A stretch of 34,391 nucleotides of DNA from Thermoanaerobaculia bacterium (GTDB taxonomy: Bacteria; Acidobacteriota; Thermoanaerobaculia; Multivoradales; UBA5704). Positions 10,901-26,800 of the stretch are shown in pieces; the first letter of the stretch is position 1; every line of letters begins with the position of its first letter. Below the pieces are notes generated by a model, which saw nothing but the letters and a program-made list of their open reading frames with translations, did no database searches and was not told where the DNA came from. The translations under genes were made by a program, and so were the position numbers. Where the stretch lies: the NCBI GenBank assembly GCA_044226625.1, contig JBGAGQ010000067.1:1-34391 (forward strand), given 5' to 3'.

Positions 10901-13750
10901 CTCGATCGGCGGCAGCGCACGGCGGTCGACCTTGCCCGAAGAGAGGCGCGGAAGCGCCGGCAGCACCGCCCAGTCGGCTGGCACCATCACCTCGGGGAGA
11001 GTCTTCGCGAGCTTCGCCGCGAGGGCGACGACGTCCAGCGCCGCCCCTCCGGCCGCGCCCTCGCTCGCGACCAGATAGGCCGCGAGGCGCGGGTCGCCCG
11101 GACGATCCTCGCGCAACGCGACCGCCGCTTCGGCCACGCCGGGCTCGGCGACCAAAGCCGCTTCGATCTCTTCGAGCTCCACGCGGACGCCGCGGATCTT
11201 CACCTGCGCATCGATCCGGCCGAGGTACTGGAGCACGCCCGACGCGCTCCAGCGGCCGAGATCGCCGGTCCGGTAGAGCCGTTCGCCCGCGGAGCCGCTC
11301 GCGCCGTCCGGGACGAAGCGCTCGGCCGTCAGATCCGGCCGGCCGAGATAGCCGCGCGCGAGCCCCGCGCCGCCGATCGCGATCTCGCCACGGCTGGAGG
11401 TGGGAGACCACCGCCCACGACGGTCGAGCAGCACGATCCTGTCGTTCGCGATCGGCGCGCCGATCGGGACGATCGCCTCCCGCTCCGCGCCCGTGGCGGC
11501 GTGGTACGTGGCGTCGATCGCCGCCTCGGTCGGTCCGTAGGTGTTGACCGGCGCGACCCCCAGCCGGTCGAGCGCGCGCGCCGCGAGGTCGGACGGGAGC
11601 GCCTCGCCGCCGCAGAACAGCCGCCGGAGCACGCCCTTGCAGGTCGCGGCCTCCTCCGTCGCGAGCAGCGGACCGAGCAGCGAAGGCACCAGCTGGAGCA
11701 CGGTGATCCGGCGTTCGGCGATCGAGCGAGCGAGGTAGGCGACGTCGCCGTGACCACCGGGCCGGGAGAGGAACAGCCGCGCCCCGACCGCGAGCGGCAG
11801 GAAGATCTCCCAAATCGAGGCGTCGAACGAGTAGGGGGTCTTCGCGAACACCCGGTCACCCGTCTCAAGGGGGAACCGGTCTTGCAGCCAGAGCAGCCGG
11901 TTCGCGATCGCCCCGTGGCTCACCGCCACGCCTTTCGGCCGGCCGGTCGAGCCGGAGGTGTAGATCACGTAGGCCAAGTCGTCCGCATCGGGCCCGCCCG
12001 GCGTTGCCGAAACGGCCGGTGCTTCGTTTCCGTCCTCCGCGCTCCAGGTCCGAAGGTCGAGCACCGGCAGACCGCACGTGGCCACGTCCTCGGGCGACCC
12101 TTCGCCCGCGATCAACAGCACAGGCTTCGCGTCGCCGAGCATCCAGGCGCGGCGCTCGGCCGGCAGCGCCGGGTCGATCGGCAAGTAGGCGGCTCCCGCC
12201 CGGAGGATCGCGAGCAGGGCCGTCACCCGTTCGGGCGACGGATCGAGCGCCAGCGCAACGATCGAGCCCCGGCCGACGCCCCGTCGGGCGAGCGCCGCGG
12301 CGAGCGCCGACGACTCGCCGTCGAGGCGCCGGTAGGTCCGGTCGCCGGCCTCGCTTTCGAGCGCCGTTTCATCCGGAGTCCGTGCCGCTTGCGCCGCGAA
12401 CAGACCGGAGAGGGTGCGGATCGCGCCGAAATCCCGCGCCGGACCGGTCCCCAGTGCCACGAGCATCTCTCGCTCAGCCTTGCCGACGATCGAAAGATCG
12501 CCGATCGACGCCGTCGGCCGCGCCACGGCGTCGGCAAGAAGCGCAAGGAAGCGCTCCGCCAAACGCCGAGCGTCGGCCTCGGCGACGCGGCTCGTGTCGA
12601 AGCCCAGCTCCAGCTCGAGCTTCCGGTCGCTCGACCCATCGGCCGCGCCGGCCGCGCCGGCACCGCGAAGCTCGAACAGGAACCGGTCACTGATCACCTC
12701 GCGATCCTCGACGCGGAACACTGCCCCACCCGCCTCGATCGTCGCCTTCGCACCGCGCGGAACGAACGAAAACGGCAGATCGGCTGGCGTCGAGCCGGGG
12801 AGCAGGTGCTCGGCGAAGACCTCCTCGAAACCGCGCCGCTCGGCGAGCGCCGCTCCCACGCGGGCGACGGCCTCGGCGAACGGCAGATCAGCCGGCAGGT
12901 CGAACGGCACCGGGATGCGCGCGGCGAACAAGCCGATCGCCCCTTCGAGCTCGGCAAACTTCCTTCCGAAGAACGCGACGGAGAGGGCGACCTTCGCGCG
13001 TTCCGAGAGCCGGGCGAGCAGCGCCGCCCAGGCGGCCGCGAGCAAGTCGGCCGGCGCCGCGCCGAGAGCTCGTGCGGCCGCGCCCATCTCGGCCGGCGCC
13101 ATGAGCGAGATCCTACCGGGGGCGAAATCGCCGGAGGCTTGCAGCTCGATCGGCAGCTCGGCGGGATCGAGCGCCGGGATCTCCTGGCGCGCCCAATAGC
13201 CGCGGCCCGCCACGGTGTCGGGCGATTCGAGCAGGTCGCAGAGCCAATCGGCGAGGTCGACGTATTGGAGCGACTCCTCCGTCGGCCGTTCCGCCGCTTC
13301 GCCCCGCCTCTCGCCATAGGCCGCGGCGATCGCACGAACGAGAAGGTCGAGGCCCGTCTCGTCGACGAGCATCGCCGGCAGCGCGAGATCGAGCACCGCC
13401 GCGCCCCCTTCGCGCTCCCTCAGCGAGGCGGTGAGCAGCGGCGGGCGCGCGAGGTCGGCTGGCGGGCACGGACACCCTTCGAGCCGGAGCTCGAGCTTCG
13501 CCGTCCCCTCGACCACCTGCAAGGGGGTGCTCATCCCCGACGGAGTACGGAATCCCGTGCGCAGGATCTCCCACCGCTCGCACAGAGTGGCGAGGGCGGC
13601 CTCGAGAGCGCTTCGATCGAGGGGGCCTTCGATCGCCACACGGCAGCGCGCGATGTATGGCGAAAGGGCGTCGCTCGATCCCAGCGCCGCGATCCGCCGC
13701 CAGAGGCGCGCCTGCTCGGGCGCCAAACGGAAACCTTGCATCTCGCTCAA
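4907..13750 (-). CDS. NRPS I-A(Gln-like)-T-C-A(Gln)-T-C-TauD/SyrP-like Fe(II)/alpha-ketoglutarate dioxygenase (2947 aa)
   Basis: N-terminal GFRLAPEQ degenerate C-like domain with no HHxxxDG (LPAMLVDETG). Two A domains with codes DAWQFGTIDK and DAWQFGLIDK. T motifs GFHSL and GGHSL. C motifs HHIVSDG and HHIASDA. C-terminal GAILFRGF, WHNENSF, DNVLVAHGR. TTG start preceded by GGAGAGGA. Confidence 0.96.
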   Translation of the reverse strand: MSEMQGFRLAPEQARLWRRIAALGSSDALSPYIARCRVAIEGPLDRSALEAALATLCERWEILRTGFRTPSGMSTPLQVVEGTAKLELRLEGCPCPPADLARPPLLTASLREREGGAAVLDLALPAMLVDETGLDLLVRAIAAAYGERRGEAAERPTEESLQYVDLADWLCDLLESPDTVAGRGYWARQEIPALDPAELPIELQASGDFAPGRISLMAPAEMGAAARALGAAPADLLAAAWAALLARLSERAKVALSVAFFGRKFAELEGAIGLFAARIPVPFDLPADLPFAEAVARVGAALAERRGFEEVFAEHLLPGSTPADLPFSFVPRGAKATIEAGGAVFRVEDREVISDRFLFELRGAGAAGAADGSSDRKLELELGFDTSRVAEADARRLAERFLALLADAVARPTASIGDLSIVGKAEREMLVALGTGPARDFGAIRTLSGLFAAQAARTPDETALESEAGDRTYRRLDGESSALAAALARRGVGRGSIVALALDPSPERVTALLAILRAGAAYLPIDPALPAERRAWMLGDAKPVLLIAGEGSPEDVATCGLPVLDLRTWSAEDGNEAPAVSATPGGPDADDLAYVIYTSGSTGRPKGVAVSHGAIANRLLWLQDRFPLETGDRVFAKTPYSFDASIWEIFLPLAVGARLFLSRPGGHGDVAYLARSIAERRITVLQLVPSLLGPLLATEEAATCKGVLRRLFCGGEALPSDLAARALDRLGVAPVNTYGPTEAAIDATYHAATGAEREAIVPIGAPIANDRIVLLDRRGRWSPTSSRGEIAIGGAGLARGYLGRPDLTAERFVPDGASGSAGERLYRTGDLGRWSASGVLQYLGRIDAQVKIRGVRVELEEIEAALVAEPGVAEAAVALREDRPGDPRLAAYLVASEGAAGGAALDVVALAAKLAKTLPEVMVPADWAVLPALPRLSSGKVDRRALPPIEGSQAGRTGRGGAYQAPRTPTEQLVAERLAALLGIERIGIHDNVFDLGFHSLHATQLGSRLRRTFGVDVPLRSLFELPTVADLSARIDQGLRADPRLEAPPLVRGERNPKGEPLSFAQSRLWFVDQMQPGSPFYNIPVALSLAGRLSRPAFAAAVSEIVRRHEALRTTFALAGSEPVQVIGPEAERFPLREIDLLGLGSALREEEARRLGRAEGLLPFDLARGPLLRVSLLRLEEGLHQALFTLHHIVSDGWSTGVVTRELAALYAAYSAGRPSPLPEPELQYADYARWQRGWLGGEAFDVLVDFWRRELGEAPQRLDLPSDRPRPGVMSSRGGARARAMPSTLLERVEQLARAEAATPFMVVLATGSALLGGLAGVDDLVIGTDLAGRNRGETEGTVGFFINQLPLRCRTGGDPEFRALLARVRETTLAAFAHQDLPFDKLVEAINPERSRAFSPIFQTKVNLHNLPPAELALPGLEIASLPVPRVTAQIDWLLNLTPTPEGLQAWVEYSADLFDPATVDRMLARFEALLEAVTDRSSARLSELPLLDPAEREAVLLGWNRSGADYGAELRLDRLFALQAGRTPERPALALDGLRWTFADLAAAAARIARRLRSEGVDVETPVALVTERSFEMVAGMLGILASGGCFVPVDPEHPAERIAEVIEAGSAFRVLAQRKFLAKLAPSTPAVAPTPALAIEEILEEGGAAPDLFAVSAPHDAENLAYVIFTSGSTGKPKGVAVTHASVANRVLWSLIEHPLVLEPVGAVDRFLQKTPIVFDASMWEYFTPLFSGALLVIAKPGEHQDTGALVRRVQADRITVLQLVPSLLRPFLDEPEVAACRTLRRMFSGGEALAPDLVLRFQDLFPGAEIYNLFGPTEAVIDCVSLRLEPDFARAAVPIGRPNGNVRTYVVSPALAAVPAGTPGELLIAGDGVARGYVGRPDLTAERFIPNPFAGEAGRPGDRAYRTGDLAKWNAQGEILYLGRADRQVKVRGVRLELGEVEARLAEHPAVGQAVVLAIDEGGSKRLVGYVVPREGAEEGLAEELRGFLAARLPAALVPSAFVRLESFPRSPSGKLDLGALPVPQIAEGEEPDARPRSATEEILAGFFAEVLERRHVGLDDDFFALGGHSLSATRVVSRARRAFGVELGVHQLFDAPTIAALAREVEGALAGSQGGAEGRAAAPAFERIPRDGSRFDLSFAQQRLWFLEQMRPGTAMFNIPDAVRLRGDLDVRALKIALGSIVARHESLRTVFPALRGEPAPRILPPSAPDLPRIDLSALGAARSGVRMRECRRLLASDGDRPLDLAIGPLLRVRLFELEAGDHVLAFTIHHIASDAWSSGVFVRELAQLYAAAAAGEPEPLRLLPPLPFQYADFAAWQRRFLAGETLERELAWWRDRLEGAPPLLDLPADRRRPARPSDRGATRSVFLSGPVAEGLKAIGRREGATPFMVLFAAWLVVVKKLTGRDDLVVGTDVANRNREETEGIVGFFINQLALRVSLAGDPSFSELVARVRKTALAAYAHQDVPFDALVDTLKLDRSVGHAPLFQVKLFLENASRPGGATPGLSVEPMEVEIRVAKLDLVLAFWDRPEGFVGWVNYSTDLFDAPRVERWMRQLATVAGRAGLAPDAPLSELLGALADIEREEQAMEKKDLKNLSFRSFKSVQPKPVAIAAQEIVRKGYFSPDQKLPLVVTPAVPDADLAEWAAGHEAEIRADLLAHGAILFRGFGVDTPEVLEAFASKLCAHLFNENGEHPRESVTGNVYTPVFYPQDQRLLWHNENSFNWRWPLKIFFACAQPAAEGGETPLVDSRRVYEEIPEEIRRAFEEKGVLYQRTYSEGLGLPWQTVFQTDDIGEVEREALETRVELSWRSGDRLRTRGGRPAVIPHPVTGEKTWFNQGQHWHVACLDPTTSQSMRSLFPDDELPRHLFFGDGMPIPDEWMATILDVYDRLEVKFPWQKGDVVLVDNVLVAHGRNPYRGPRKILVAMGEMTSYDDVGGAQ
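4915..4921 (-). promoter_or_regulatory. Shine-Dalgarno (GGAGGAG) for the I-A(Asn)-T gene, translational coupling
   Basis: 4 nt upstream of ATG 4910, with an ATGA stop/start overlap. Confidence 0.7.
4930..5965 (-). other. NRPS-fused TauD/SyrP-like beta-hydroxylase domain
   Basis: H-x-E (HNE, 5570-5578) plus a distal His in AHGR (~4995). Also GGETP, WFNQ and WQKGDVVLVDN. Confidence 0.9.
5972..5976 (-). promoter_or_regulatory. Candidate internal Shine-Dalgarno (AGGAG) before in-frame ATG 5965 at the start of the hydroxylase region
   Basis: Minus strand reads gagAGGAGcaggccATGgagaagaag, a 6-nt spacer. Could be coincidental Glu-Glu codons. Confidence 0.35.
12500..13750 (-). other. Interface (I) domain 1, catalytically degenerate C-family domain
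   Basis: GFRLAPEQ start, WEILRT, HHxxxDG replaced by PAMLVDE, LQYVDLADW, GAIGLFA. Sits N-terminal to an A domain whose true C is on the upstream protein. Confidence 0.8.
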
Positions 13751-13783: not shown

Positions 13784-16700
13784 TCAAACCTGGCTTGCGG
13801 CTGGACGCCGCCGCGCCTTCAATTTTTCTCTGGCGACGTCGGCGACCGAGGCCGCTGTCGCCGCGACCCGCTCGCGGTCCAGCGCCGCGAGCCGCTCGAT
13901 CGCCTGGCCGAGCGTCGAGCCCGCCTCGGCCGACAACGCCGCGAGCGCCGCCTGAAGCTTCTTGAGCTTGTGCTGGATCGTCGCCGCGTCGAACCGCCGT
14001 CGGTCGTAGGTGAGCTGCAGCTCCAGGCCCGGCTGGGGGATCACGCGCAGCGACAGCGGTAGGTTGGTCGACACGTCGTAATCCGGCATCCGCATCTCAA
14101 ACGAGAGCCGCCCTTCCGGCTTGGTGAACGGGAAGTTCCAGAATTCGAACGCGGTGTCGAACAGGCCCCGGTCGGCGGGCAGTCCGGCCGCCCGCTGCGC
14201 CTCGACGAGCGGCGCGTGCGAGTAGCCCAGCAGCTCGGCTTGCTCGACCTGGAACGAGCGCAGCCACTCGCCCACCGGCGTTTCGGCGGCGAGCCGCGCG
14301 CGCACCGGCAGGGCGTTGATGAAGCAGCCGACGATCCGCTCGACGCCCGTAAGCTCCGGCGGCCGGCCCGAAACCGAGACGCCGTAGACCACGTCGTCGC
14401 TCCCCGCCTCTTGCGCGAGCAGAAGCGCCCAGGCGGTCGCGACCACGATCGACAGCGAGGTCTGCTCGCGCTTGCCCGCCTCGCGGACCGCCCGTTCGAG
14501 CTCTGGGTCGACCGTCGCGCCGAGCCGGATGAAATCCGCCCGCTCCGGATGCCCTCCCTCGTCCGGCCGGTCGGCCGCGAGCGGCGTCGGCCCCGAGAAG
14601 CCGCCGAGGTAGCGGCCAAAGAAGCTCTCCGTCGCTCCCGCCGCGCGCGCTGTACGCTCGGCGAGCCAGGCGATGTAGTCGCGGAACGGCCGCGTCGGCG
14701 GCAGGACCGCCTCCTCGCCGCGGCGCAGCGCCTCGTAGGTCGAGAGCACCTCGACGACCAGCATGGGTGAGGACCAACCATCCATCAACAGGTGGTGGTG
14801 GCTCCAGACCACCTCCCAGCTCCGGTCCTCCGTGCGGATCAAACGGAGCCGCATGAGCGGCGGCGCCGTGAGGTCGAACGGCGTCTCGCGGTCGAGCCGG
14901 GTGAGCGCCTCGGCGCGTGCCTTCTTCTCCTCGGGTGGCAGCGCCCGAAGGTCGTCGAACGCAACCGGTAGGGTGGCACGCGACGCCACCAGCTGGAGCG
15001 GCTGGTCGAGATCTTCCCAAGCGAACCCGGTGCGCAGCGCCGGGTGGTGATCGACCGAGCGTTGCCAGGCCTCGGCGAGCGCCGCCTCCTCGATCTCTCC
15101 CACCAGGGTGCAGGTGACCTGTTCCAGGTAAACCGCCTGTTTGCCCGCGGCGAGCGTGTCGAAGAGGAATCCCTGCTGGAGCGGCGACAGCGGATAGGCA
15201 TCGACGGCGTCGCGTCCCGACACCAGCGCCGACAACCGCTCCGGATCGAGCCCGGCGAGCGCGAACGGCTCGCCCGCGTCCTCCCGCGTCCCAACCTCGA
15301 CTGGCAGGTCGCCGAGGGCGAGCCCCAGCTCGCGCAGGGTCTGGTGTTCGAACAGGTGGCTGCTCTGCAGGTCGATCCCCGCCTCGCGCGCCGCGGCGAC
15401 GATTTGGATTCCGAGCACCGAATCGCCGCCCATCTCGTAGAAGTTGTCGTCGATGCCGATCTCTTCGATCCCGAGCACCCGCTGCCAGATCTCGCCGAGC
15501 TTTCGCTCGGTCTCGGTGCGTGGCGCCGCGAACGGCGTCTGGACGCTGCGCGGATGCGCCGCGCGCGCAGCGGTCGAGGCGGCGGCCAGCTCGCCCGGTC
15601 CCTCGGCGCGCGCGCGCTGCATTTGTTCGAGCAACACGCGCAGGTCGCGCGGCGAGACCGCCACCTGGCGGCCGACCCGCGAGGCGAGGATGCGCCGGAA
15701 CGCCTCGACGCCCTCCTGCGGGCTCATCCCCGACTGAGCGAGCAGCGCGTCTCGCTCGCGGTCTCCCGAGCTAGCCGCCGGGGCCGATCCGGACGAGGAG
15801 GACGCAGCCTCTTGGCGCCCGGGACCTGCCGCCTGCGCGGAGGGAGCCGCTCCCTGCGCTTCGAGCCGGCCGGCCGCCGCGCCGACGCTCTTCAAGGTGA
15901 ACGCCTCGATCTCGACGACCGCGCGCCCTTCGTCGTCGAGGAGCGAGACATCGGCGGTGACCGTCTCGGCCGTCCCGTCCTCGCGCTTGCGAATCGAGCT
16001 CCAGAGCCGCACCGGCATACCACCCGCGAAACGCAGGCGCCGATAGGCGAACGGCAGGTGGCTCCCCTCTTCGAGCAGGCCGACGATCCCGGTCGCGACG
16101 TCCAGTAGCGCCGGATGGAGTGGAAGCTCCGCGAAATCCGCCGCGAAGGCGGGATCGAGCTCCAGCCGCGCGAGCGCGCACCCGTCGCCGATGTGCACCC
16201 GCTTGAGCGTCTGCCACCGATCGCCCCACCAGACCAGCGCCTCGCGATCGTCGAGCAGGCGGCCGGTCACCTCGTCGGTGCGCCCGGCGCACACATCGCG
16301 CAACGCCGACAGGTCGCGCCGGCCGAGATCCGCGGGCCCGCGACGCGCTTTGCCGAACGCGTGCTCCTGCCATTTCGCCTCGCCCGGCGCGCGGCTCGCG
16401 ATGCGGAAGCTCCAGACCTCCTCGCCCCCCCTCTCGACCCCTCGCTCGACCAGCACACGGGCCTCTTTGACGGCGCCTTCGGGGACCATTAGAGGGGTGA
16501 GGAAATAGACGTCGGACAGCTCGACCGGCGTCGCGGGATCGCCGTTCGCCGTGGCGAGGACGAACGCGGCCCGCGCCATCTCCAGCATGCCCGTGCCGGG
16601 CACCGCCGGGGTCTTCGCCACGCGATGCTCGTCGACCACCCAGAGCGCACCCGCCGAGAGGCGAGAGAGGAACACCTTGCGGGCCGGCTCATCCTCGGCG

Positions 16701-19700
16701 AGCGTATGCACCAGCGGGTGGAGCTTCGGCCCCGCCGTTTCCTGCCTTTGGGCCGATTGACTCGAACTGGCCGCTCCCTTGGTCGGCACCCGCCCGTGGA
16801 CGGCCATGCCCACGTCGCGCCAGGCACCGTAATTGATCGCCACCGCCTGGATACCTCGCCGCCCGCCGAGGTCCTCGGCGAACGCGTCGAGGAATGAGTT
16901 CGCGGCGCAGTAGTCGACCTGGCCGAAGTTGCCGTAGATCGCGATCGTCGACGAGCAGACGACGAAGAAATCGAGCGGTTCGGCTACGAGCACGCTCTCG
17001 AGCACCCGCGCGCCCTCGAGCTTCGGCCGCAGCACCGCGGCGGCGACCTCCGGATCCTTGAGCTGGACGACGCCGCCGCCGGGAAGGCCTGCCGCGTGCA
17101 CGACGCCGCGGATTCCGTCGCCGAAACGCTCGTGCGCGGCGGCGACCGCCGCTCGCATCGATTCGGCGTTCGACACGTCGGCAGAAACGGCAAGCACCTC
17201 GGCGCCGAGCGCCTCCAGCTTGAGGATCGCGCGCATCGCGCGGCTCGCCGCGTCTCCCTCCCCCTCCGGCTGCGCCGCGAGGTGATCGTCCCAGCGCTCC
17301 CGCGGCGGCAGGGCGCTCCGGCCGGTGAGCACGAGGCGCGCGCGGCACGAGGCGGCGAGCGATTCGGCGAGCGAATAGCCGACGCCTCCGAGGCCGCCGG
17401 TGATCAGGTAGACACCGCGCTCGACGTAGGGGAGGCGCGCCTCCAGCGTACGGTCGAGCTCCACTCCTTCCCAGGCCTGAACCCAGCGCCGGTCGCCGCG
17501 GAGCGCGACGCCGACATCAGAACGTGGGTCGCAGATCTCGGCGAACAGCCGGTCGAGCGTTTCGTCGAGATCGCGCGGCGGCCATTCGAGGTCGATCGCC
17601 CGGGCCCCCAGGCGCGGGTTTTCCTGCGGCACCACCTTGCAGGGGCCCAGCAGCGTCGCCTTCTCCGGCGAGAGCCGCTCGTCGCCGCGGGCACGGAACA
17701 GACCGCTCGCCACCACCGCGATCTCGATCTTCTCGGCGAGCCGCTGCCGGCCGAGCGCCTGGGCGAGGAACAGCAGGCTCCAAAACGACCGCTTCTCGAG
17801 CGCGGCCGCATGCGCCGGGGTCGGTTCGAGGTCGTCGCCCAGCGCCAGGCAGTGGACGATCCGAGTCGGCAACCCCGGTCCCGCGGCGAGCGCTTCGAGA
17901 AGGCGATCGTAATCCTCGGCCCGGAAGGGATCGAACGCGAACCGCCCCGGCTCGAGCTCCGCGAATTCGCCTCCGGTCGCCTCGACGCCCGTGGCGATCG
18001 AGACGGTGACCCCGGCGGCCGCGAGCCTCCGGCCAAGCGCATCGGCCAGACCCTCGCGATCGGCGATCAGCAGGAACCGCTCCCCGCTTCGTTCGGCCGC
18101 CAGCTCCTCGACCGGCCGCGGCAACGCAGGAGAAGAGGGCTTCCAATAGGGGACGTAGAACCAGTTCTCGAAGTCGAGGCGCTTCGCTCCTTGCTGCGCC
18201 GACATCGCCGCCAGCATGTCGGAGGCCGGCTCGATGAAGAACCGCCGACGCTCGAACGGATAGGTCGGGAGCACCACGCGGTGCCGCTTCTGGCCGGAGA
18301 AGAACTTCTTCTGATCGATCGCGACGCCGCCCATCCAGAGCTGGCCCAGCGCGGTCAGCAGGACCGCGAGGTCGTCCTGCTCCTCCTTCGCCTGGCGCGC
18401 CGAGGCGACGACCGGCCGGCTGCCGCGATCCGGATGCTGGCGCGCGAGCTGCGCGAGGCTTGTTCCCGGCCCCACTTCGAGCAACGCCCGCTCGGGTTCT
18501 TCGAACAGCGTCGTGAGCCCTTCGGCGAAGCGCACCGTGCCGCGAAGGTGGCGGAGCCAGTACTCGGGATCGGTCGCCTGCTCGGCGGTGATCCACGCTC
18601 CGGTGACGTTTGAGACGTACGGCAGCTTAGGCGCCGAGAACGCGACCGATTGGAGCGCGGCGCGGAACGGTGCGAGCGCCGGCTCCATCATCGACGAATG
18701 GAACGCGTGCGAGGTGTGGAGCCGCCGCGAGGAGACGCTGCGCTCCCCGAGCTCGGCCTCCAGACGGTCCATCGCGGCGAACGGCCCAGCCACCACCGCC
18801 CGACGCGGCGCGTTGGTGGCGGCGAGCGATAGGTCAGGATGGCGCGCGAGCAGCTCTTCCACCTCGGCGCCCGGGAGCGAGACGGTGAGCATCGCGCCGG
18901 GCGGCACCGCCTGCATCAGCCGGCCGCGCGCCGCCACCAAGGCGAGCGCGTCATCGAGCGAGAAGACTTCGGCCAGGGCCGCCGCGACGTATTCGCCGAT
19001 CGAATGGCCGAGCATCGCCTTCGGCGCGATCCCCCAAGCCGCGAGCTGCCGCGCGAGCGCCCACTCGACGACGAACAACGCCGGCTGGGTGAGTCGCGTC
19101 TCGCCGAGCCGCCCCTCGGCTTCGGCACGCCGCTCCGGGGTCGGATAGAGGACCTCGCGCAGATCGAGCGACAGGTGGGGATTCAGAATCTCGGCGCAAC
19201 GATCGACCTCGGCGCGGAAGACCCGCTCGTTCCGGTAGAGGTCGGCGAGCATCCCGACGTGCTGCGATCCCTGGCCCGAGAACAGGAACGCGAGCTCCGG
19301 CGCTCCGGTCTCACGCCCCGAGACGAGAGGACGCTTGCCGTCGGCGCCCGAGAGCACGGCGATCGCGTCCTCGCGATCTCGGCAGACCAGCGCGCGCCGG
19401 AACTCCATCTGACGTCGGCCGAGCGCGAGCGTATAGGTGACGTCGGCGAAGGCCTCGGGCGAGGCCCCGGCCCCCGCCTCCAGGTGCTCCCGGAGCAATT
19501 CCGTCCGCCGGTCGAGCGCGCTCTCGGTGCGCGCCGACAGAAGTAATAGCTGCCACGGGCGCGAGGGGCCCGAGGGAGCGGCCAAAGGCGCCTCCTCGAC
19601 GATCGCGTGCGCGTTCGTGCCGCCGATGCCGAACGCCGAAACCCCCGCGCGGCGCGGGGCGTCGCCGCGGCGCCACGGCGTGAGGCGGTCCTGGACGAAG

Positions 19701-20899
19701 AACGGGCTCGACTCGAAATCGATCTGCGGGTTGGGCCGCTCGAAGTTGATGCTCGCGGGCAGCTCTTCGCGGTCGAGAGCGAGCAGCGTCTTGATCAGCC
19801 CCGCGACCCCCGCGGCCGAAGCCAAATGGCCGATGTTGGTCTTCACCGAGCCGATGCCGCAAAACGCCCGCTTGTCGGTCTTCGCCCGGAACGCGCGGGT
19901 GAGCGCGGTGACCTCGATCGGGTCGCCAACGAGAGTTCCCGTTCCGTGCGCCTCGATGTAGCCGATCGTCTCCGGGTCGACGCCGGAAACCGAATGGGCG
20001 GCGCGAATCACCCGCTCCTGACCGTCCGCGCCCGGGGCCGTGAAGCCCACCTTCGCCGCGCCGTCGTTCGAGACCGCGGTGCCGCGGATCACCCCCCAGA
20101 TGCGGTCGCCGTCGGCGAGCGCGTCTTCGAGCCGGCGCAGGACCACCACGCCGAGGCCGCTGCCGAAGATCGTCCCCTTGGCGTTCGCGTCGAAGGCGCG
20201 GATCCGGCCGTCGGGCGAGAGGATGTCCCCTTCGCGGTAGAAGTAACCCGCGGTCTGATTCGTGCGCACCGAGACCCCGCCCGCGAGCGCCATGTCGGTC
20301 TCGCCCGCGAGCAGCCCCTGGCAGGCGAGATGGACCGCGACCAGCGAGGTGGAACAGGCCGACTGGACATTCATGCTCGGCCCGCCGAGCCCCAGCTTGT
20401 AGGAGATGCGGGTCGAGACGTAATCGCGGTCGTTCGCGATCTGGGCGTTGAGCTCCCCCACCGAGGCGAGGAGCGCCGGGTTGCTGTAGATGTTCCAGAG
20501 ATAGGTCGTGAGCTTGATTCCCGAGTAGACGCCGACCGGGCCGGAGAATCGCTCCGTGTCATACCCCGCATGCTCGAGAGCTTCCCAGGCACATTCGAGG
20601 AACATGCGCTGCTGCGGGTCGACCAACTCGGCCTCTCGCGGGCTGTAGGAGAAGAGCGCGGCGTCGAACTGATCGTCGTCTTCGATGGTCCGTCCGACCC
20701 GCACGTAAGCGGAGTTCTGGAGCAGGACCTCGGACTCCCCGGCGCGCCGCAGGTCCTCCTCGGAAAAATGGGTGATCGACTCGACCCCGGCGCGCAGGTT
20801 CGCCCAGAACTCCTCGACGTTCTTGGCCCCCGGGAATCGGCCTGCCATGCCGATCACCGCCACCTCCATGCCGGTCCAGTCGTCGTCGCGTTCGCTCAT
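13784..20899 (-). CDS. Type I cis-AT PKS module with terminal condensation domain: KS-AT-KR(N part)-DH-KR(C part)-ACP-C (2371 aa)
   Basis: KS VQSACSTS (Cys ~20355), EAHGTGT, KTNIGH. AT GQGSQ, GHSIG, HAFH. KR TGGLGGVG and YCAAN. DH HRVAKTPAVP and HPALLD. ACP GGDSV (~15420). C HHLLMDGWS (~14790). ATGA overlap with the upstream stop at 20896-20899. Confidence 0.96.
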   Translation of the reverse strand: MSERDDDWTGMEVAVIGMAGRFPGAKNVEEFWANLRAGVESITHFSEEDLRRAGESEVLLQNSAYVRVGRTIEDDDQFDAALFSYSPREAELVDPQQRMFLECAWEALEHAGYDTERFSGPVGVYSGIKLTTYLWNIYSNPALLASVGELNAQIANDRDYVSTRISYKLGLGGPSMNVQSACSTSLVAVHLACQGLLAGETDMALAGGVSVRTNQTAGYFYREGDILSPDGRIRAFDANAKGTIFGSGLGVVVLRRLEDALADGDRIWGVIRGTAVSNDGAAKVGFTAPGADGQERVIRAAHSVSGVDPETIGYIEAHGTGTLVGDPIEVTALTRAFRAKTDKRAFCGIGSVKTNIGHLASAAGVAGLIKTLLALDREELPASINFERPNPQIDFESSPFFVQDRLTPWRRGDAPRRAGVSAFGIGGTNAHAIVEEAPLAAPSGPSRPWQLLLLSARTESALDRRTELLREHLEAGAGASPEAFADVTYTLALGRRQMEFRRALVCRDREDAIAVLSGADGKRPLVSGRETGAPELAFLFSGQGSQHVGMLADLYRNERVFRAEVDRCAEILNPHLSLDLREVLYPTPERRAEAEGRLGETRLTQPALFVVEWALARQLAAWGIAPKAMLGHSIGEYVAAALAEVFSLDDALALVAARGRLMQAVPPGAMLTVSLPGAEVEELLARHPDLSLAATNAPRRAVVAGPFAAMDRLEAELGERSVSSRRLHTSHAFHSSMMEPALAPFRAALQSVAFSAPKLPYVSNVTGAWITAEQATDPEYWLRHLRGTVRFAEGLTTLFEEPERALLEVGPGTSLAQLARQHPDRGSRPVVASARQAKEEQDDLAVLLTALGQLWMGGVAIDQKKFFSGQKRHRVVLPTYPFERRRFFIEPASDMLAAMSAQQGAKRLDFENWFYVPYWKPSSPALPRPVEELAAERSGERFLLIADREGLADALGRRLAAAGVTVSIATGVEATGGEFAELEPGRFAFDPFRAEDYDRLLEALAAGPGLPTRIVHCLALGDDLEPTPAHAAALEKRSFWSLLFLAQALGRQRLAEKIEIAVVASGLFRARGDERLSPEKATLLGPCKVVPQENPRLGARAIDLEWPPRDLDETLDRLFAEICDPRSDVGVALRGDRRWVQAWEGVELDRTLEARLPYVERGVYLITGGLGGVGYSLAESLAASCRARLVLTGRSALPPRERWDDHLAAQPEGEGDAASRAMRAILKLEALGAEVLAVSADVSNAESMRAAVAAAHERFGDGIRGVVHAAGLPGGGVVQLKDPEVAAAVLRPKLEGARVLESVLVAEPLDFFVVCSSTIAIYGNFGQVDYCAANSFLDAFAEDLGGRRGIQAVAINYGAWRDVGMAVHGRVPTKGAASSSQSAQRQETAGPKLHPLVHTLAEDEPARKVFLSRLSAGALWVVDEHRVAKTPAVPGTGMLEMARAAFVLATANGDPATPVELSDVYFLTPLMVPEGAVKEARVLVERGVERGGEEVWSFRIASRAPGEAKWQEHAFGKARRGPADLGRRDLSALRDVCAGRTDEVTGRLLDDREALVWWGDRWQTLKRVHIGDGCALARLELDPAFAADFAELPLHPALLDVATGIVGLLEEGSHLPFAYRRLRFAGGMPVRLWSSIRKREDGTAETVTADVSLLDDEGRAVVEIEAFTLKSVGAAAGRLEAQGAAPSAQAAGPGRQEAASSSSGSAPAASSGDRERDALLAQSGMSPQEGVEAFRRILASRVGRQVAVSPRDLRVLLEQMQRARAEGPGELAAASTAARAAHPRSVQTPFAAPRTETERKLGEIWQRVLGIEEIGIDDNFYEMGGDSVLGIQIVAAAREAGIDLQSSHLFEHQTLRELGLALGDLPVEVGTREDAGEPFALAGLDPERLSALVSGRDAVDAYPLSPLQQGFLFDTLAAGKQAVYLEQVTCTLVGEIEEAALAEAWQRSVDHHPALRTGFAWEDLDQPLQLVASRATLPVAFDDLRALPPEEKKARAEALTRLDRETPFDLTAPPLMRLRLIRTEDRSWEVVWSHHHLLMDGWSSPMLVVEVLSTYEALRRGEEAVLPPTRPFRDYIAWLAERTARAAGATESFFGRYLGGFSGPTPLAADRPDEGGHPERADFIRLGATVDPELERAVREAGKREQTSLSIVVATAWALLLAQEAGSDDVVYGVSVSGRPPELTGVERIVGCFINALPVRARLAAETPVGEWLRSFQVEQAELLGYSHAPLVEAQRAAGLPADRGLFDTAFEFWNFPFTKPEGRLSFEMRMPDYDVSTNLPLSLRVIPQPGLELQLTYDRRRFDAATIQHKLKKLQAALAALSAEAGSTLGQAIERLAALDRERVAATAASVADVAREKLKARRRPAASQV
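13930..15200 (-). other. Terminal C domain with DCL-like signature
   Basis: DAYPLSPLQQGFLF, LRTGFAWEDLDQPLQLV, WSHHHLLMDGWS, FRDYIAWL. Confidence 0.82.
15630..18160 (-). other. KR (structural and catalytic parts) interrupted by a DH domain at about 15890-16725
   Basis: The catalytic KR runs from YLITGGLGGVG to INYGAWRDVGMA (~16805). The DH follows (LHPLV, HRVAKTPAVPG, LHPALLD). The KR C-terminal segment GMSPQEGVEAFRRIL...QVAVSPRDL then resumes at ~15731-15630. Confidence 0.8.
18330..19290 (-). other. AT domain, malonyl-CoA type
   Basis: FSGQGSQ, TQPALF, GHSIGE (~19000), TSHAFHS (~18705). Confidence 0.9.
19590..20870 (-). other. KS domain of the NRPS-to-PKS hybrid type
   Basis: VAVIGMAGRFPGA, DPQQR, VQSACSTS, HGTGT, NIGH. 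The Cys-His-His triad is present. Confidence 0.92.
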
Positions 20900-23800
20900 C
20901 CCTGCTCCCCTTCCGTCTTACGTTGCGCCAACCGCCGCTTCAGCCGATCGCGTCCGGTCGCGAGCTTTTCGGTTCTGTCCTCGATCACCGCCGCCGGCCG
21001 CGGCGCCGATTCCCCTTGCGAAAGGAACGCGGCGAGCGCGGCGACGGTCGGGTGGGTGAACAGCTGCACCACCTGTAGCTCAGTGCCGAAAGCCTCCTGA
21101 ACCCGGGCATGAACTTTCACCATCTGCAGCGAGTTGCCGCCCAGCTCGAAGAAATTGTCGTCCTTGCCTACCTTCTCGACTCCGAGCACGTCGCGCAGAA
21201 TCGCGGCGAGCGTTCGCTCGATCTCGGTCTGGGGCGCGGCGAACGCGCCGCTCCGGTTGGTATCGTCCGGCTCGGGCAGTGCTGCGCGGTCGACTTTGCC
21301 GTTAGGGTTCACCGGTAGTTTCTCCAAGAGGACGAAGGCGGCCGGAACCATGTAGTCCGGTAGCCGGTCTTTGAGGAACGCTCGCAGCTCGGCGACGTTT
21401 GGACGGCCGGCGGCCGGCGTTCCCGGTTCCAGGACCACATAAGCCAGAAGGCGCTTCTCGCCTTCGGAGCCCGCGGATCCGGGCGACGGCCGAGCGATCA
21501 CCACACACTCGCGCACGACCGGATGGCGGCCGAGCAGCGCCTCGATCTCTCCGGGCTCGATGCGATAGCCGCGGATCTTCACCTGCACGTCCGCGCGCCC
21601 GGCGAACTCGACCTCGCCGTCCGGCAGGTAGCGCCCGAGGTCGCCGGTGCGGTAGACCCGATCGCCGGAATCCGCGAGCTCGGCGTCGTCCGCCGCCGGG
21701 TTCCGAGTAAATCGCGCCGCGGTCGCCGCGGGATCGCCGACATATCCGGCCGCGAGGTGCGGGCTGCGCATCAGGATCTCGCCCACCTCGCCCACCCCGG
21801 CGAGGCGCCCGGCCCGGTTCACGACCAGGACCTGGACGTCCTCGATTCCCCGACCGAGCGGCAGACTTTGCTTCTCTCCGCGATCGCGCCCAGGCTCGGG
21901 AACCACATGGTATCCCACCGAACGCTGCGTCTCGGTCGAGCCGTAGTAGTTGACGACCGTGACGTTCGGCGCGAGCGTTCGGAGACGCTCCACGTCACGC
22001 CGGGTGAGCACGTCGCCGACGAAGAACGCCCAGCGCAGATCGGGGGCGACCGGCGGCGCTTCTCCCGGACCCAGCTCGCACAAGATCTGCCCCATCGCGG
22101 GCGTCAGGTGCGCGACGGTGATCCGCTGGTCGCGGAGCCAGGCGGCGAGGCGCCCGGGGACCACGATGTCGCCGGGGGGCGGCGCGACCACCGCCGCGCC
22201 GGTCTGAAGCGGCGTGAACAGGTCGCGCTGGAGAGGATCGTGCGCGAGGCCGGAGAGCATCGTGTAGCGGTCTTCCGGGCCAAAGCCGAAGCGCCTCTCC
22301 TGCCAGGGTACGAAGTGCGACAGCGGACCGTGTCGCCCGAGGATCCCCTTCGGAACTCCGGTCGAGCCCGAGGTGAATGAGAGATAGGCAAGGTCGTCGG
22401 GGCCGATTTCGACGCCCAGCGGCGCCGCGCTCTCCTCCGCCGTGGGATCGGCGAGCACCGAACCGAACGCAGGGAGGGTCAGGCGGCAGGGCACCGCCGT
22501 CTCCTCCAGGAACTCCACCACCTGGGCGGGCACCGGCCCCGCCGCCTCGAGGGCCAGGAATCCGGTCGGCCGCGCCAGCCGGAGCGTGTCGACCATCCGC
22601 TTCCCGGGGTGGGCGGGATCGAGGATCGTGAACGCGGCCCCCGATTCGAGCACGCCCATCACCGCCGGAACCAGGCGCGCCGAGCGGTGGCCGAGGATGG
22701 CGACCGCATCGCCTTTCCGAACCCCTTCCCGCGCGAGCCGTCGGGCGATCCGCCGCGCGCGGTCGAGCAGCTCTCCGTAGGAAAAGCTCTCGGCTGGGTC
22801 GGCGACCGCCAGGCGCTCGGGCGTGCACTCGGCCCAGGCGGTGAAGCGTGCCGGGACGGAGCCGACCCACGCGGCCGAAAGCGTCGCCCGGGGGTCGGGA
22901 AGGATCTCCGCTCCCATCGCGAGCGAGAGCTCGGCCGCCGGGCGATCGGGCTCCGCCATCGCCTGGCCGAGCAGAGAGCGATACTGATGGAGCATCGCGG
23001 CGATTCGAGCCGGATCGAATAGGTCCGCGTTGTAGACCCAGTCGAGATGGATCTCGCGTCCGACCTCGAAAGCGTAGACCGTGAGGTCGAATTTCGCCTG
23101 GGCCTCCGGGGCCGCGAGCGGCGCGACGCGGATCCCCTCGACCGCGGCATGTACCTCCGGAAGGTTGACCATGTTGAAGAACGCCTGGAACAGGGGTGTC
23201 CGCGCGAGGTCGCGGGCCGGCTGGACCGCGTCGAGCAGTCGCTCGAACGGCACCTCGTCGCCGAACGCCTCCAGGACCCGCCCGCGCGTGCGCTGGATCA
23301 GGTCGCGGAAGCTCGGCTCGAGGCTCTCCCGTTCCGACGCCTCGGGTGCGAGATCCAGGCGCAGGACGAGGGTGTTCAGGAACATCCCGATGAGCGGTTC
23401 GAGCTCCGGCCGATCTCGCTCGGCGGCCGGCGTGCCGATCGCGAAGTCGCCCTGCCCGGCGAGCCGGCCCAGCTGCAGTGCCCAGCCGGAGAGCAGCGTC
23501 ATGAACAGCGTCGCCCCCGACGAGCGCGCGAGCGCGCGGACACCATCCGCGAGATCGGCCGGCAGGACCAGCGAGGCCGAGGCTCCGGCGAAGGTCCGCA
23601 CTGCCGGCCTCTGGCGGTCGAGCGGCAACTCCAGCGCGGGCGGCATCCCGGCGAGCCGCGTTCGCCACCTTTCGAGGCGACGCGCAAGGCGCTCGGCGGA
23701 GAGCTCGCCGCGCTGCCAGACGGCGTGGTCGACCACCTGCACCGCGAGCGCCGGGAGCCCGGATGCCCGGCCGGACCGCGCCTCGCCGTAAAGCGCCGCG

Positions 23801-26800
23801 AGATCGCGCACCAACACGCCGACCGACCAGCCGTCGGCGATGGCATGGTGGAGCGCGAAATGGAGAGCGAAATGGAGTTGAGGACCGGCCGTCTCCCCGA
23901 GGTCTCCGACGTCGACGGCCACCAGATGGAAGCGCGCGAGCGGACCGCGCTCGAGGTCGAACGGCGCCGCGGCGAGCCGCTCGTAAAGGCGGACGCGTTC
24001 GGACTCCACTCTCCGTCCGTCCAGGGCCGAAAGATCCGCAAGCGGGAGCGCGAGCCCCGCTCGCTCGGCGATCCGCTGCACCGGCGCGTCGCCCGCGAGG
24101 GCGAAGGTCGTCCGCAGGCTCTCATGGCGCTCGACCAGGCGATCGAGCGCCGAGCGGAGCGCCGGCACCGAGAGGTCCCCTTCGAGCCGCACCGCCGCCG
24201 GAATCGTGTAGGTCGAGCTCCCCGGCTCGAATCGGTCGAGCAGCCAGAGCCGCTCCTGCGCGAAGGAGAGCGGAATCGGGCCTTGCCGATCGGCCCGAGG
24301 GATCGTTCGCACTTCGGACCCGTCCGCCGTTTCGCCGATCCATTCGGCGAGCCCGGCGACCGTCGGCCGGTCGAACAGGACGGATAGAGGCAGCTCGACC
24401 GAAAACGCTTGGCGCAGGCGCTGCGCCGCGCGCGTTGCGAGAAGCGAGTGGCCTCCGAGGTCGAAGAAGTCGTCCTCGCGGCCGATGTCCGGGCGCTCTA
24501 GGAGATCGCTCCAAATCGCCGCGATCTGCCGTTCGACCTCGCCGCGCGGCGCCTCTCCGGCCGCTCCCAGTCCCCCCGCCTCGAAGGCGGCGCTCCGGGC
24601 CAGCCGGACGGCACGGAGCAGGGCGCGACGGTCGACCTTGCCGTTCGCGGTGATCGGCAGGGATTCCAGGCGGAGGAAGGTCCGCGGCACCATCGCCTCG
24701 GCGAGACGCTCCCTGAGCGCGGCGACCAGGTGTCGATCACCGAGCCCCTCGGCGCCCGGCATCGCGACCACGAAGCCGATCAGGCGGCGCTCCGCGCCGG
24801 AAACCTCCCCGTCCTCCACCGCCACCGCGGCGTCGCGCACGCCGGGCACCGCCGCGAGCGCGGCTTCGATCTCCCCCAGCTCGATGCGCTGGCCGCGGAT
24901 CTTGACCTGCCGGTCGATGCGGCCATGGAACTCGAATTGGCCGTCCGGCCGGAGACGCACTCGGTCGCCGGTCCGGTACATGCGGCTGCCGGCCGGCGCG
25001 CCGAACGGATCGGGAACGAAACGCTCCGCCGTCTGGGCAGGGTCGCCGAGATAACCGCGCGCGAGGCCGTCGCCCGCCACCGCGAGCTCGCCCGCCGAGC
25101 CGGTGGGGGCAAGCCCTTGGAAGCGATCGAGCAGATAGGCCCGAACGCCGGGGATCGGCTGCCCGATCGGCGGCGCTTCGGTACCATCGCCATCGCGCGC
25201 CTCGCCCTGGGTAGAGATGACCGCGTTTTCCGCCGGTCCGTACTGGTTGCAAAGGACATATCGGGCGCCCGGGGGGAGGCCGCGGAGTAGACGGTCGCCC
25301 CCGGTCCCGAGCGCCCTTAGCGCGAGGTCGGGAGGTGCCGGCTCGAGCGCCGCGAGATCGAAGATCGGCGTGGGCATCCAGCCGAGGGTCAGGCGCTCCG
25401 ACGCGAACCAGCGCATCAGGGCCGCCGGCTCGTTTCGGATCGCGGTCGGTGGGATGTGAAGGCTCCCGCCCGAGACGAGGGCGGGCCAAATCTCGATGAT
25501 CGACGCGTCGAAGCTCGGTCCCGCGGTCTGGCTCCCCCGATCCGCGGCCGTCCAGGCGAATCGGTCGCGATACCAGCCGACGATGTGGAGCGCGCCGCGA
25601 TGGCTCATCGCGACCGCCTTCGGTCGGCCGGTCGAGCCCGAGGTGAAGATCACGTAGGCGAGGCTTTGGGGATCGCGGCGGCGCGACGGAACCGCCGAGG
25701 ATCCGGAAACGGCAGCGACCGGCTCGGTGTCCAGAGCGATGACCCGCGCGTCGCCGCACCAGGATCCCGCGAGCTTCGACCGGGTGATCACCGCGGCCGA
25801 CCGCGAAAGCGCCACCATGTCGCGACGCCGTTCGCTCGGATAGGCGGGGTCGATCGGTGCGAACGCCGCCCCGGCCCGGAGCACGCCAAGCTCGGCCACG
25901 ATCAGATCGATCGAACGGTCGAGGCAAACCGCGACCGAAGCGTCCTCGGCGATCCCCAGCTCGCGCAGCTTCCAGGCGAGCCGGTTCGCGCGCGCCCCCA
26001 GCTCGCCGTACGAGATCGTGCCGTCCAAGTCGGCGACCGCGAGGGCCTCGGGCGTTTGCTCTTCCCACCGGGCGACGAGGTCGTCGAGTTGGGCCGCCAC
26101 GTCCCCAACTCTCCCTGGCCCCGCGCCGCGGCCCGCGGCGAGCAGCTCCTCCCGCTCGGCGTCGGAGAGCAAGCTCAGCTCCGACAGACGCGCCGTCGGG
26201 CGCCGGCCGAGATCGACGAGCACGCGTCCGAGCTGGCCGAGCAGACGCTCGACCGTCGTCCGTTCGAACAGGTCGGCGTCGTACTCGACCCCGGCCGCGC
26301 CTCCGCCTTCTGCTCGCGGCTCCACGTAGAGGGTCAGATCCCACTTCGCCGCGACCTCCTCCGGCTCGATCGGCGTGAGGCGCGCCCCGGGAAGCGAGAG
26401 GCCGGTCCCGGTGGTCGGCTGCGAGACGAGAGCCACCTGGAACAGCGGCGCGAGCGAACGCGCGCGTGCCGGAGCCAGACGCTCGACCAGCCGCTCGAAC
26501 GGCACGGGAGAGCGCTCCGCCGCGATCAAGCGCGCCCGGCTCGCTGCGAGCAGGTCGGCGCCGGAAGGATCGCCGGAGAGGCCGGCCCGGGCGACCGCCG
26601 TATCGGCGAGCATGCCCACCACCCCCACGGTCTCCGCGGTCCGCCCCGCGACCGGCAGGCCGATCGCGATCGTCTCGCGACCGGACAGGCGCGAGAGGAG
26701 AGCACCGAACGCGGCGAACCAGACCTGGAACGGGGTCGCGCCGAAACGGCTGGAGAGCGACGAGAGAGCGGCCGTGATCTCACCTACGGGCACAAAGGGG

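Follow-up and report, generated by a model that had tools for sequence, protein, structure and literature searches.

The last adenylation (A) domain of a large nonribosomal peptide synthetase (NRPS) in a Thermoanaerobaculia bacterium resembles, by family profile, that of the aminoadipate reductase Lys2, sits in a complete elongation module, and is followed in an overlapping gene by a polyketide synthase (PKS). The window, that is, the whole stretch of DNA analysed, comprises all 34,391 nucleotides of contig JBGAGQ010000067.1 (C67; about 71% G+C), part of a 6.6 Mb genome in 133 contigs, and its long open reading frames (ORFs) all lie on the minus strand. We propose, with middling confidence and from sequence comparison, that this domain (P0005; 21274..22896, minus strand; pocket code DPRHFVYRSK) activates by adenylation the distal carboxyl, on the side chain, of an amino-diacid; the residue would be held as an omega-thioester and the chain then extended by the PKS. 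The ingredients are of known kinds, namely, an NRPS module, a PKS module with the acyltransferase in cis and, in a few cases, side-chain-carboxyl activation; the novelty lies in a large and coherent clade of Lys2-type domains that serve as elongation units and, here, are wired to a PKS.

P0005 is preceded in the NRPS protein (P0001) by a condensation (C) domain (22918..24285, minus strand; PF00668, 292.8 bits, residues 6-461 of the segment 20899-24300) that reads HHAIADG, with the HHxxxDG motif at P0001 residue 3502, and is followed by a thiolation (T; peptidyl carrier protein) domain (21022..21213, minus strand; PF00550, residues 1030-1093 of 1134) with the serine of GGNSL in place. Pfam assigns to the last 1134 residues of P0001 the domains Condensation (6-461), AMP-binding (486-853), AMP-binding_C (918-1002) and PP-binding (1030-1093), and no reductase domain, which agrees with the description in the earlier note of a normal C-A-T module without a reductase. 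A C domain with HHxxxDG, an A domain and a T domain with the GGxS serine thus lie in one polypeptide, the layout of an NRPS elongation module. P0005 itself is full length, and its core motifs (the TSGSTG P-loop, YRTGD, QVKIRG and NGKVDR) are intact.

The ten Stachelhaus positions were read from an alignment of 296 A domains. Other domains in this alignment yield codes that we take to be textbook ones (DFWNIGMVHK, DILQVGLIWK, DAWQFGLIDK and DAKDLGVVDK), which supports the register of the P0005 code. The same code had been given before, together with five motifs, each of which we found once, in the last A domain, at P0001 residues 4003, 4033, 4082, 4109 and 4137. The code unites Pro236 and Arg239 with His278, a combination (His or Asn at 278) expected of A domains that activate an omega-carboxyl. 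The claim that the domain is unlike the other A domains of the window was likewise borne out, with phmmer scores of 201-229 bits against them compared to 1196 bits for P0005 against itself. Across the genome, the same query recovered 76 full-length A domains, among which only a domain on contig C109 (569 bits) stood out from the remainder (at most 267 bits), and these two are the Lys2-type A domains of the 76. The C109 domain, with the code DPRHLVLRAK, belongs to a 1217-residue C-A-T protein (C109:26274-29924, minus strand; L081:274-3924) that heads another NRPS line; its neighbours encode DNA polymerase III alpha and a sensor kinase, with no biosynthetic accessory genes beside it. Searches with P0005 returned no structure of a Lys2-type A domain from the PDB, where the best matches were generic (LgrA and FscH), and only generic 'NRPS' clusters from the ESM Atlas.

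Membership in the Lys2 family was gauged with the curated NCBIfam profile TIGR03443 and with control A domains. This profile is the top family for P0005 (505.2 bits, compared to 383 bits for the generic A-domain model TIGR01733), whereas it gives three generic A domains of the window only 161.7, 195.6 and 168.4 bits, so that, at the level of profiles, the Lys2-like character asserted in the earlier note holds. In a six-frame scan of the genome, TIGR03443 scored 589.6 bits at the P0005 site, 530.5 bits at C109 and 262.8 bits at the next site; the 589.6-bit match spans the second half of the C domain, the A domain and the T domain (model positions 1-921). Neither P0005 alone nor the longer match reaches the equivalog cut-off of 1030.1 bits, and the A-T-R architecture of Lys2, the L-aminoadipate-semialdehyde dehydrogenase, is incomplete, as the protein ends about 40 residues past the T domain with no thioester reductase. 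Because the score falls below the cut-off and the reductase is absent, the protein as judged from its sequence is not a Lys2, although its A domain is Lys2-like. In a comparison with the N-terminal (ADA) region of Lys2, the half C domain upstream of the P0005-type A domain gave 33.7 and 56.3 bits and controls 21.7 and 19.4 bits, scores too low to show whether it lies closer to that region. Lys2 activates the distal (delta) carboxyl of L-2-aminoadipate (Aad). The code attributed to it is DPRHFVMRAK, that attributed to McyE DPRHSGVVGK and that attributed to module 1 of the ACV synthetase (ACVS) EPRNIVEFVK; the code attributed to Lys2 equals that of P0005 at 8 of 10 positions.

A bacterial C-A-T-R module (L084; G125:C15:6311-12862) was considered as a possible P0005-type module with a reductase and rejected, its A domain being Ser-like, with 231 bits to P0005 and homologues carrying the code DVWHFSLIDK. 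This terminal module reaches 514.6 bits with TIGR03443 owing to its reductase domain, and the matched model range therefore needs checking in six-frame scans with this profile. Among the homologues listed for P0005 and for the half C-A-T-R segment of L084, we found only bacterial NRPSs and no fungal Lys2.

Domains of the P0005 type turn out to be common among soil bacteria not yet cultured. From a homologue search in which 7558 of 8000 scored candidates fell at E ≤ 1e-30, 120 proteins were listed as the clade set, and these, together with the window and C109, supply, from two protein-level data sets, at least 120 full-length domains that score at least 400 bits to P0005. In a FastTree phylogeny (LG+gamma, 296 sequences, 472 columns), 120 such domains group with one of 390 bits in a 121-tip clade (support, 0.998). 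The sources among the matches listed are Thermoanaerobaculia, Longimicrobium (Gemmatimonadota), Pyrinomonadaceae, Chloroflexota and some cyanobacteria, mostly as metagenome-assembled genomes, and the members belong mainly to Acidobacteriota and Gemmatimonadota. At least 3 of 201 sampled genomes of the phylum contain a clade domain, a lower bound given that two candidates were scored per genome; a fourth match was the Ser-like module of L084, which scored through its reductase.

The pocket is strongly conserved within the clade: Arg239 is present in all 120 domains, Pro236 in 115, Asp235 in 113 and His278 in 109. Position 330 is Arg in 103 and Gln in 17 of the 120, position 331 is Ala in 102 and Ser in 17, and position 322 is variable (Leu 45, Phe 37, Tyr 26, Ser 9). 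One member carries the code DPRHFVMRAK, the same as that attributed to yeast Lys2, and a member of the Gln330 subgroup also ranks TIGR03443 first, at 406.3 bits. Among 171 background domains, none of Pro236, Arg239, His278 and Arg330 is the commonest residue at its position, and no background code has more than 4 of 10 positions in common with that of P0005. The sister of the clade consists of four domains with codes D[P/V]RHFAL[L/M]AK (support for the joint clade, 0.993), which agree with the code of Zmn16 A1 (DPRHLALLAK) at up to 9 of 10 positions. These domains are devoid of the Lys2-like motifs AHDP.QRD, HLTPAM and TETQR, and the one scored with TIGR03443 reached 284.2 bits.

Three more relatives or members occur in cultured or named strains. 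P0101 of Bradyrhizobium sp. SZCCHNRI2014 (residues 514-1059 and 1621-2118) has a code identical to that of P0005, and the module that follows has a beta-alanine-like code (VDFITSLGDK); this isolate is a possible organism for study. Tolypothrix campylonemoides VB511288 likewise has a domain of the clade. On plasmid bgla_1p of Burkholderia gladioli BSR3 (L087; NC_015382.1:103607-117964), a PKS (KS-AT-KR-ACP, for ketosynthase, acyltransferase, ketoreductase and acyl carrier protein) accompanies an NRPS with the order C-A-T-C-A-T-TE (TE, thioesterase), along with two genes of the phytanoyl-CoA dioxygenase family, an MbtH gene and an exporter. In that NRPS, the second A domain is related to the Gln330 subgroup (LSGLGHDPLFRD, HLTPSLA), and its code, read by eye, is DPRHFGCQVK.

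The module context of the clade was surveyed for 124 domains of the P0005 type in the 120 listed proteins and in genome and metagenome loci with flanking sequence. Upstream of the A domain, we found a C domain in 119 of the 124 cases among the matches listed, a partial C domain in one and the start of the protein in four. Downstream of the A-T unit, the protein ends in 62 cases, and a C domain follows in 42, a partial C domain in one, a thioesterase-like domain in 14 and a KS in one (P0089), with four cut off. In 13 genome loci with 14 domains, the next domain is C in 13 cases and KS in one (L001); in 10 metagenome loci with 10 domains, it is C in eight, KS in one (L088) and the end of the ORF in one. 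Because a C domain precedes nearly all of these A domains and usually follows in the flanked loci, placement in an elongation module is the norm for the clade. The direct hand-over to a PKS, by comparison, characterizes this cluster family only: within the examined occurrences, the junction is found outside the window only in P0089, L001 and L088, the last two being orthologues of this cluster, 73% identical, that both keep it. In L012 and L063, a KS or the same PKS module appears one or two modules further on. The earlier interpretation is weakened in this respect: elongation modules of this type are spread over a large clade, and only the passage to a KS sets the present cluster family apart.

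An epimerization (E) domain after the A-T unit would argue against omega-tethering. The corresponding test in 240 proteins had no power, with no E-like T-C-C arrangement after any generic A-T unit, and the sole T-C-C after a P0005-type domain was that of P0024. In this protein (residues 648-1513 and 2150-2575), two tandem condensation-like domains without epimerase motifs follow the A-T unit; the first of these types (HHVAFDGWS / HHSAFDGWS) also occurs after a sister-group A-T unit.

The PKS that would receive the chain (P0002; 13784-20899, minus strand) starts within the NRPS gene: the stop TGA of the NRPS and the ATG of the PKS overlap by 4 nt as ATGA (20896..20899, minus strand; read from the sequence and the ORF coordinates). 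Pfam resolves P0002 as KS-AT-KR-DH-ACP-C, where DH denotes the dehydratase. All of these domains lie on the minus strand. The KS (19739..20866; PF00109 and PF02801) has the catalytic Cys (SACSTS) and both His residues (EAHGTGT and NIGHL), and the AT (18323..19288; PF00698) has GHSIGE and HAFHS, the malonyl-type motifs. The KR (16814..17416; PF08659) shows a Rossmann motif and the Tyr (TGGLGGVG, DYCAAN), with no LDD motif within the domain, and is followed by the DH (15869..16720; PF21089 and PF14765; LHPLV, HRVAKTPAVP and HPALLD), the carrier protein (15323..15502; PF00550; GGDS) and the terminal C domain (13922..15202; PF00668, 235.5 bits; HHLLMDG). P0002 therefore has the parts of a modular type I PKS with the AT in cis: the Cys-His-His triad of the KS, the AT and carrier serines, and a KR and a DH. 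Catalytic motifs are present throughout the C-A-T module and the PKS (HHxxxDG, KS Cys-His-His, GHSIGE/HAFHS, KR Tyr, DH His and Asp, carrier serines), and by these motifs both look functional. The earlier claim of translational coupling to a KS-AT(malonyl)-KR/DH protein survives with respect to the overlap and, by the AT motifs, to malonyl; it needs amending in that the KR comes before the DH and the protein ends in a C domain. The order KR before DH, rather than the usual DH-KR, recurs in related clusters, in both further PKS modules of this composition (L001 and L012), and in L088 as well.

What the sequence shows, namely, the order of the domains, catalytic motifs that are intact, a profile match of the Lys2 type and the pocket code, is compatible with the following scheme, in which the substrate, the activated carboxyl and the action of each PKS domain are predicted. 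P0005 would adenylate the distal carboxyl of an amino-diacid and load it on the T domain as an omega-thioester, leaving the alpha-amino group free, so that the upstream C domain could attach the growing peptide to it. In the overlapping gene, the KS would then condense the omega-thioester with malonyl-ACP; reduction by the KR and dehydration by the DH would yield a beta-hydroxy or enoyl acid. The terminal C domain of P0002 would join this extended chain to the amino acid that comes next, passing it to P0003. An amino-diacid that is iso-linked, lengthened by C2 and free at its alpha-carboxylate would result in the backbone. For the amino acid, L-2-aminoadipate would be the first guess and glutamate the second. 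The genome has dapB above the cut-off. With the two family models used to look for a supply of aminoadipate, we found neither LysX of the alpha-aminoadipate pathway (best 55.4 bits, cut-off 275.6) nor lysine 6-aminotransferase (best 157.7 bits, cut-off 520.8) in the genome, which favours glutamate over aminoadipate. No supply or tailoring genes were seen on the contig, where the genes are all of the NRPS/PKS kind.

Several observations weigh against an omega-tethered residue of this kind. Asp235, which in ordinary A domains binds the alpha-amino group beside the activated carboxyl, is retained in P0005 as in 113 of the 120 clade members, and the C domains that flank P0005 are ordinary by a crude score. 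The two supply enzymes not found with these models count here too, and so does the HxxxGxxxxP motif of the DH, which has Lys at the usual Gly. The grouping of P0005 with Lys2 is one by family profile and by codes. Finally, the sister group could not be tied more closely to Zmn16: with P0005 as the query (E ≤ 1e-85), no Zmn16/FclI-type domain was found in 81 genomes of the family of G001 (Xenorhabdus locus L078), and with a sister-group domain as the query (E ≤ 1e-90), none was found in 36 genomes of the genus of G001. Because these queries retrieved no such domain, the link between the sister group and Zmn16 is one of codes.

The retained Asp235 and the ordinary scores of the flanking C domains also speak for a different possibility, namely, that P0005 activates an acidic amino acid (Glu, Asp, Aad or a hydroxylated form) at its alpha-carboxyl, with the two arginines merely binding the side-chain carboxylate. 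The residue would then be incorporated through a normal peptide bond, and the PKS would turn it into an acid of the gamma-amino, vinylogous or statine-like kind whose side-chain acid is free. The ordinary C-A-T-C settings of the clade (C upstream in 119 of 124, downstream in 42) point the same way, and the extension of alpha-tethered amino acids from an NRPS into KS-KR-DH is well precedented, as in syringolin and cyclotheonamide. Nevertheless, we consider alpha-activation, the main rival, less likely than omega-tethering. The P0005 code agrees with none of the 171 background codes at more than 4 of 10 positions and has only D and K in common with the textbook alpha-Glu code of the same genome (DAKDLGVVDK), and the profile likeness is to Lys2, an enzyme that activates a distal carboxyl. 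Moreover, in the literature searched, the one published DPRH-type code with a known product, that of Zmn16 A1, goes with a side-chain-linked residue.

Less probable still, and in our estimate improbable, is the case where the Lys2-like pocket misleads and P0005 loads another anionic or polar unit, such as a sulfonated or phosphorylated amino acid, a hydroxy- or keto-diacid, or Asn/Gln. The substrate may differ within the clade, given the variability of position 322 and the presence of Gln at position 330 in 17 of 120 domains; some relatives have sulfotransferase Pfam domains in the same protein; and a survey paper puts the code DPRHVSLLAK among Asn-activating domains. The two pocket arginines and the Lys2 profile match, in contrast, point to a carboxylate, and the contig shows no gene that would supply or tailor such a unit. 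That the module is skipped or inactive and P0005 adds nothing to the product is very improbable: although decay does occur in this assembly line, as the A domain of P0001 module 2 is devoid of the A5-A6 region, P0005 is full length with intact core motifs and a T domain serine, the orthologues are 73% identical, and the clade keeps the pocket residues.

The remainder of the window belongs to the same assembly line. P0001 (20896-34353, minus strand) is open at its 5' end and reads ...A10-T, C-A-T, C-A-T, C-A-T and then the C-A-T module of P0005. Downstream of the PKS, P0003 (4907-13750, minus strand) comprises, by Pfam, a C-like domain and A-T-C-A-T-C-TauD, and P0004 (1668-4910, minus strand) comprises a C-like domain and A-T; an additional gene that starts with a C domain, also by Pfam, extends past the contig edge. 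In P0001, the second A domain (residues 1679-2153; 27895-29319, minus strand) has lost about 25-65 residues between A5 and the next core motif, the A5-A6 region being gone where two sister domains read ...IPGVRAY, and its phmmer match falls in two pieces. On this evidence, it is probably inactive, and the T domain of module 2 may be loaded by a neighbouring A domain. The A domains on either side of it have near-identical codes (DAIWQGQVIK and DAIWGGQVIK), and the orthologous cluster L001 contains a C-T module without any A domain, at a different position than P0001 module 2.

P0003 ends in a fused TauD-type dioxygenase (4952-5815, minus strand), and condensation-like domains without HHxxxDG open both P0003 (about 12461-13738, minus strand) and P0004 (3615-4868, minus strand), reading LALPAMLVDETG and LALPSIAADARS. 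The A domain after the C-like domain has an Asn/Asp-like code (DLTKIGEVGK). In sequence, the TauD and C-like domains of P0003 and P0004 look like the arrangement of a beta-hydroxylase with an 'interface domain' that is described by Reitz et al. 2019, as cited in the antiSMASH 8 paper. The junction of C-TauD with C-like-A-T also occurs in L063 and L089, immediately after the P0005-type module.

Taken together, these results partly support the earlier interpretation. If omega-tethering is correct, acidic residues with an iso-linkage are made by the NRPS modules of an entire clade, in soil phyla that have been little studied, and this cluster in particular predicts a chain-extended amino-diacid in a peptide backbone. 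Current structure predictors would then draw such residues wrongly, as for zeamine A1, where Aad was predicted and side-chain-linked Asp was found. Tentatively, and as a proposal that we rate as doubtful, the C-A-T modules of the clade could be living bacterial representatives of the elongation module thought to have preceded Lys2 (and perhaps ACVS module 1), inserting delta-linked Aad or gamma-linked Glu that is here extended to a 2-amino-C8 (suberate-type) hydroxy/ene diacid with a free alpha-carboxylate. We know of no such 2-amino-C8 residue described from any assembly line. The clade fits the published evolutionary hypothesis for Lys2; if the proposed chemistry is true, its members would be the missing bacterial elongation-module relatives postulated by Iacovelli et al. 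2021, and the origin of the fungal reductase would become testable.

Among known systems, P0005 best fits the family profile of Lys2 (505 bits), with a match that reaches into the half C domain and the T domain. The differences are substantial: Lys2 has a reductase and a truncated ADA domain, whereas the P0005 module has no reductase and a full catalytic C domain, belongs to a multi-modular line, passes its product to a KS and scores far below 1030 bits. McyE of microcystin synthetase is, to our knowledge, the one well-known elongation module with an iso-linked residue; it is a C-A-T module that loads D-Glu, which ends up gamma-linked, and its code begins with DPRH. McyE follows PKS domains, whereas the P0005 module precedes them.

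For bacterial relatives of the Lys2-type reductases, Bushley and Turgeon found only A-acyltransferase proteins. In the main text of the papers searched, no A domain of the Lys2 type is described from an elongation module of a bacterium; their supplementary tables may list related domains.

Zmn16 A1, of the zeamine/fabclavine NRPS, is a published case with a DPRH-type code. In the zeamine paper, this code, DPRHLALLAK, comes with 2-aminoadipic acid as the predicted substrate; according to later structural work, prezeamine carries 'gamma-aspartate', that is, side-chain-linked Asp, at the corresponding position. DPRH at positions 235, 236, 239 and 278 is common to both domains, whereas Zmn16 A1 lies in a first module and has LALLA at positions 299-331 in place of FVYRS, without the second Arg. 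The PARAS paper mentions two A domains that tether Asp by its side-chain carboxyl.

ACVS module 1 provides a functional parallel. It adenylates Aad on the delta-carboxyl, and Iacovelli et al. 2021 know of no other NRPS domain that uses Aad; its C* domain, like the ADA domain found in reductases of the Lys2 type, suggests to these authors descent from an elongation module. The association of Pro236/Arg239 codes with side-chain carboxyls, put forward in the earlier note, is thus upheld by the Zmn16 A1 code and linkage and by the delta-carboxyl activation of ACVS module 1. Like the module proposed here, ACVS module 1 is an NRPS module that joins a diacid through its distal carboxyl; it serves for initiation, its condensation domain being truncated and non-catalytic, and the code attributed to it (EPRNIVEFVK) differs more from that of P0005, whose module is an elongation module.

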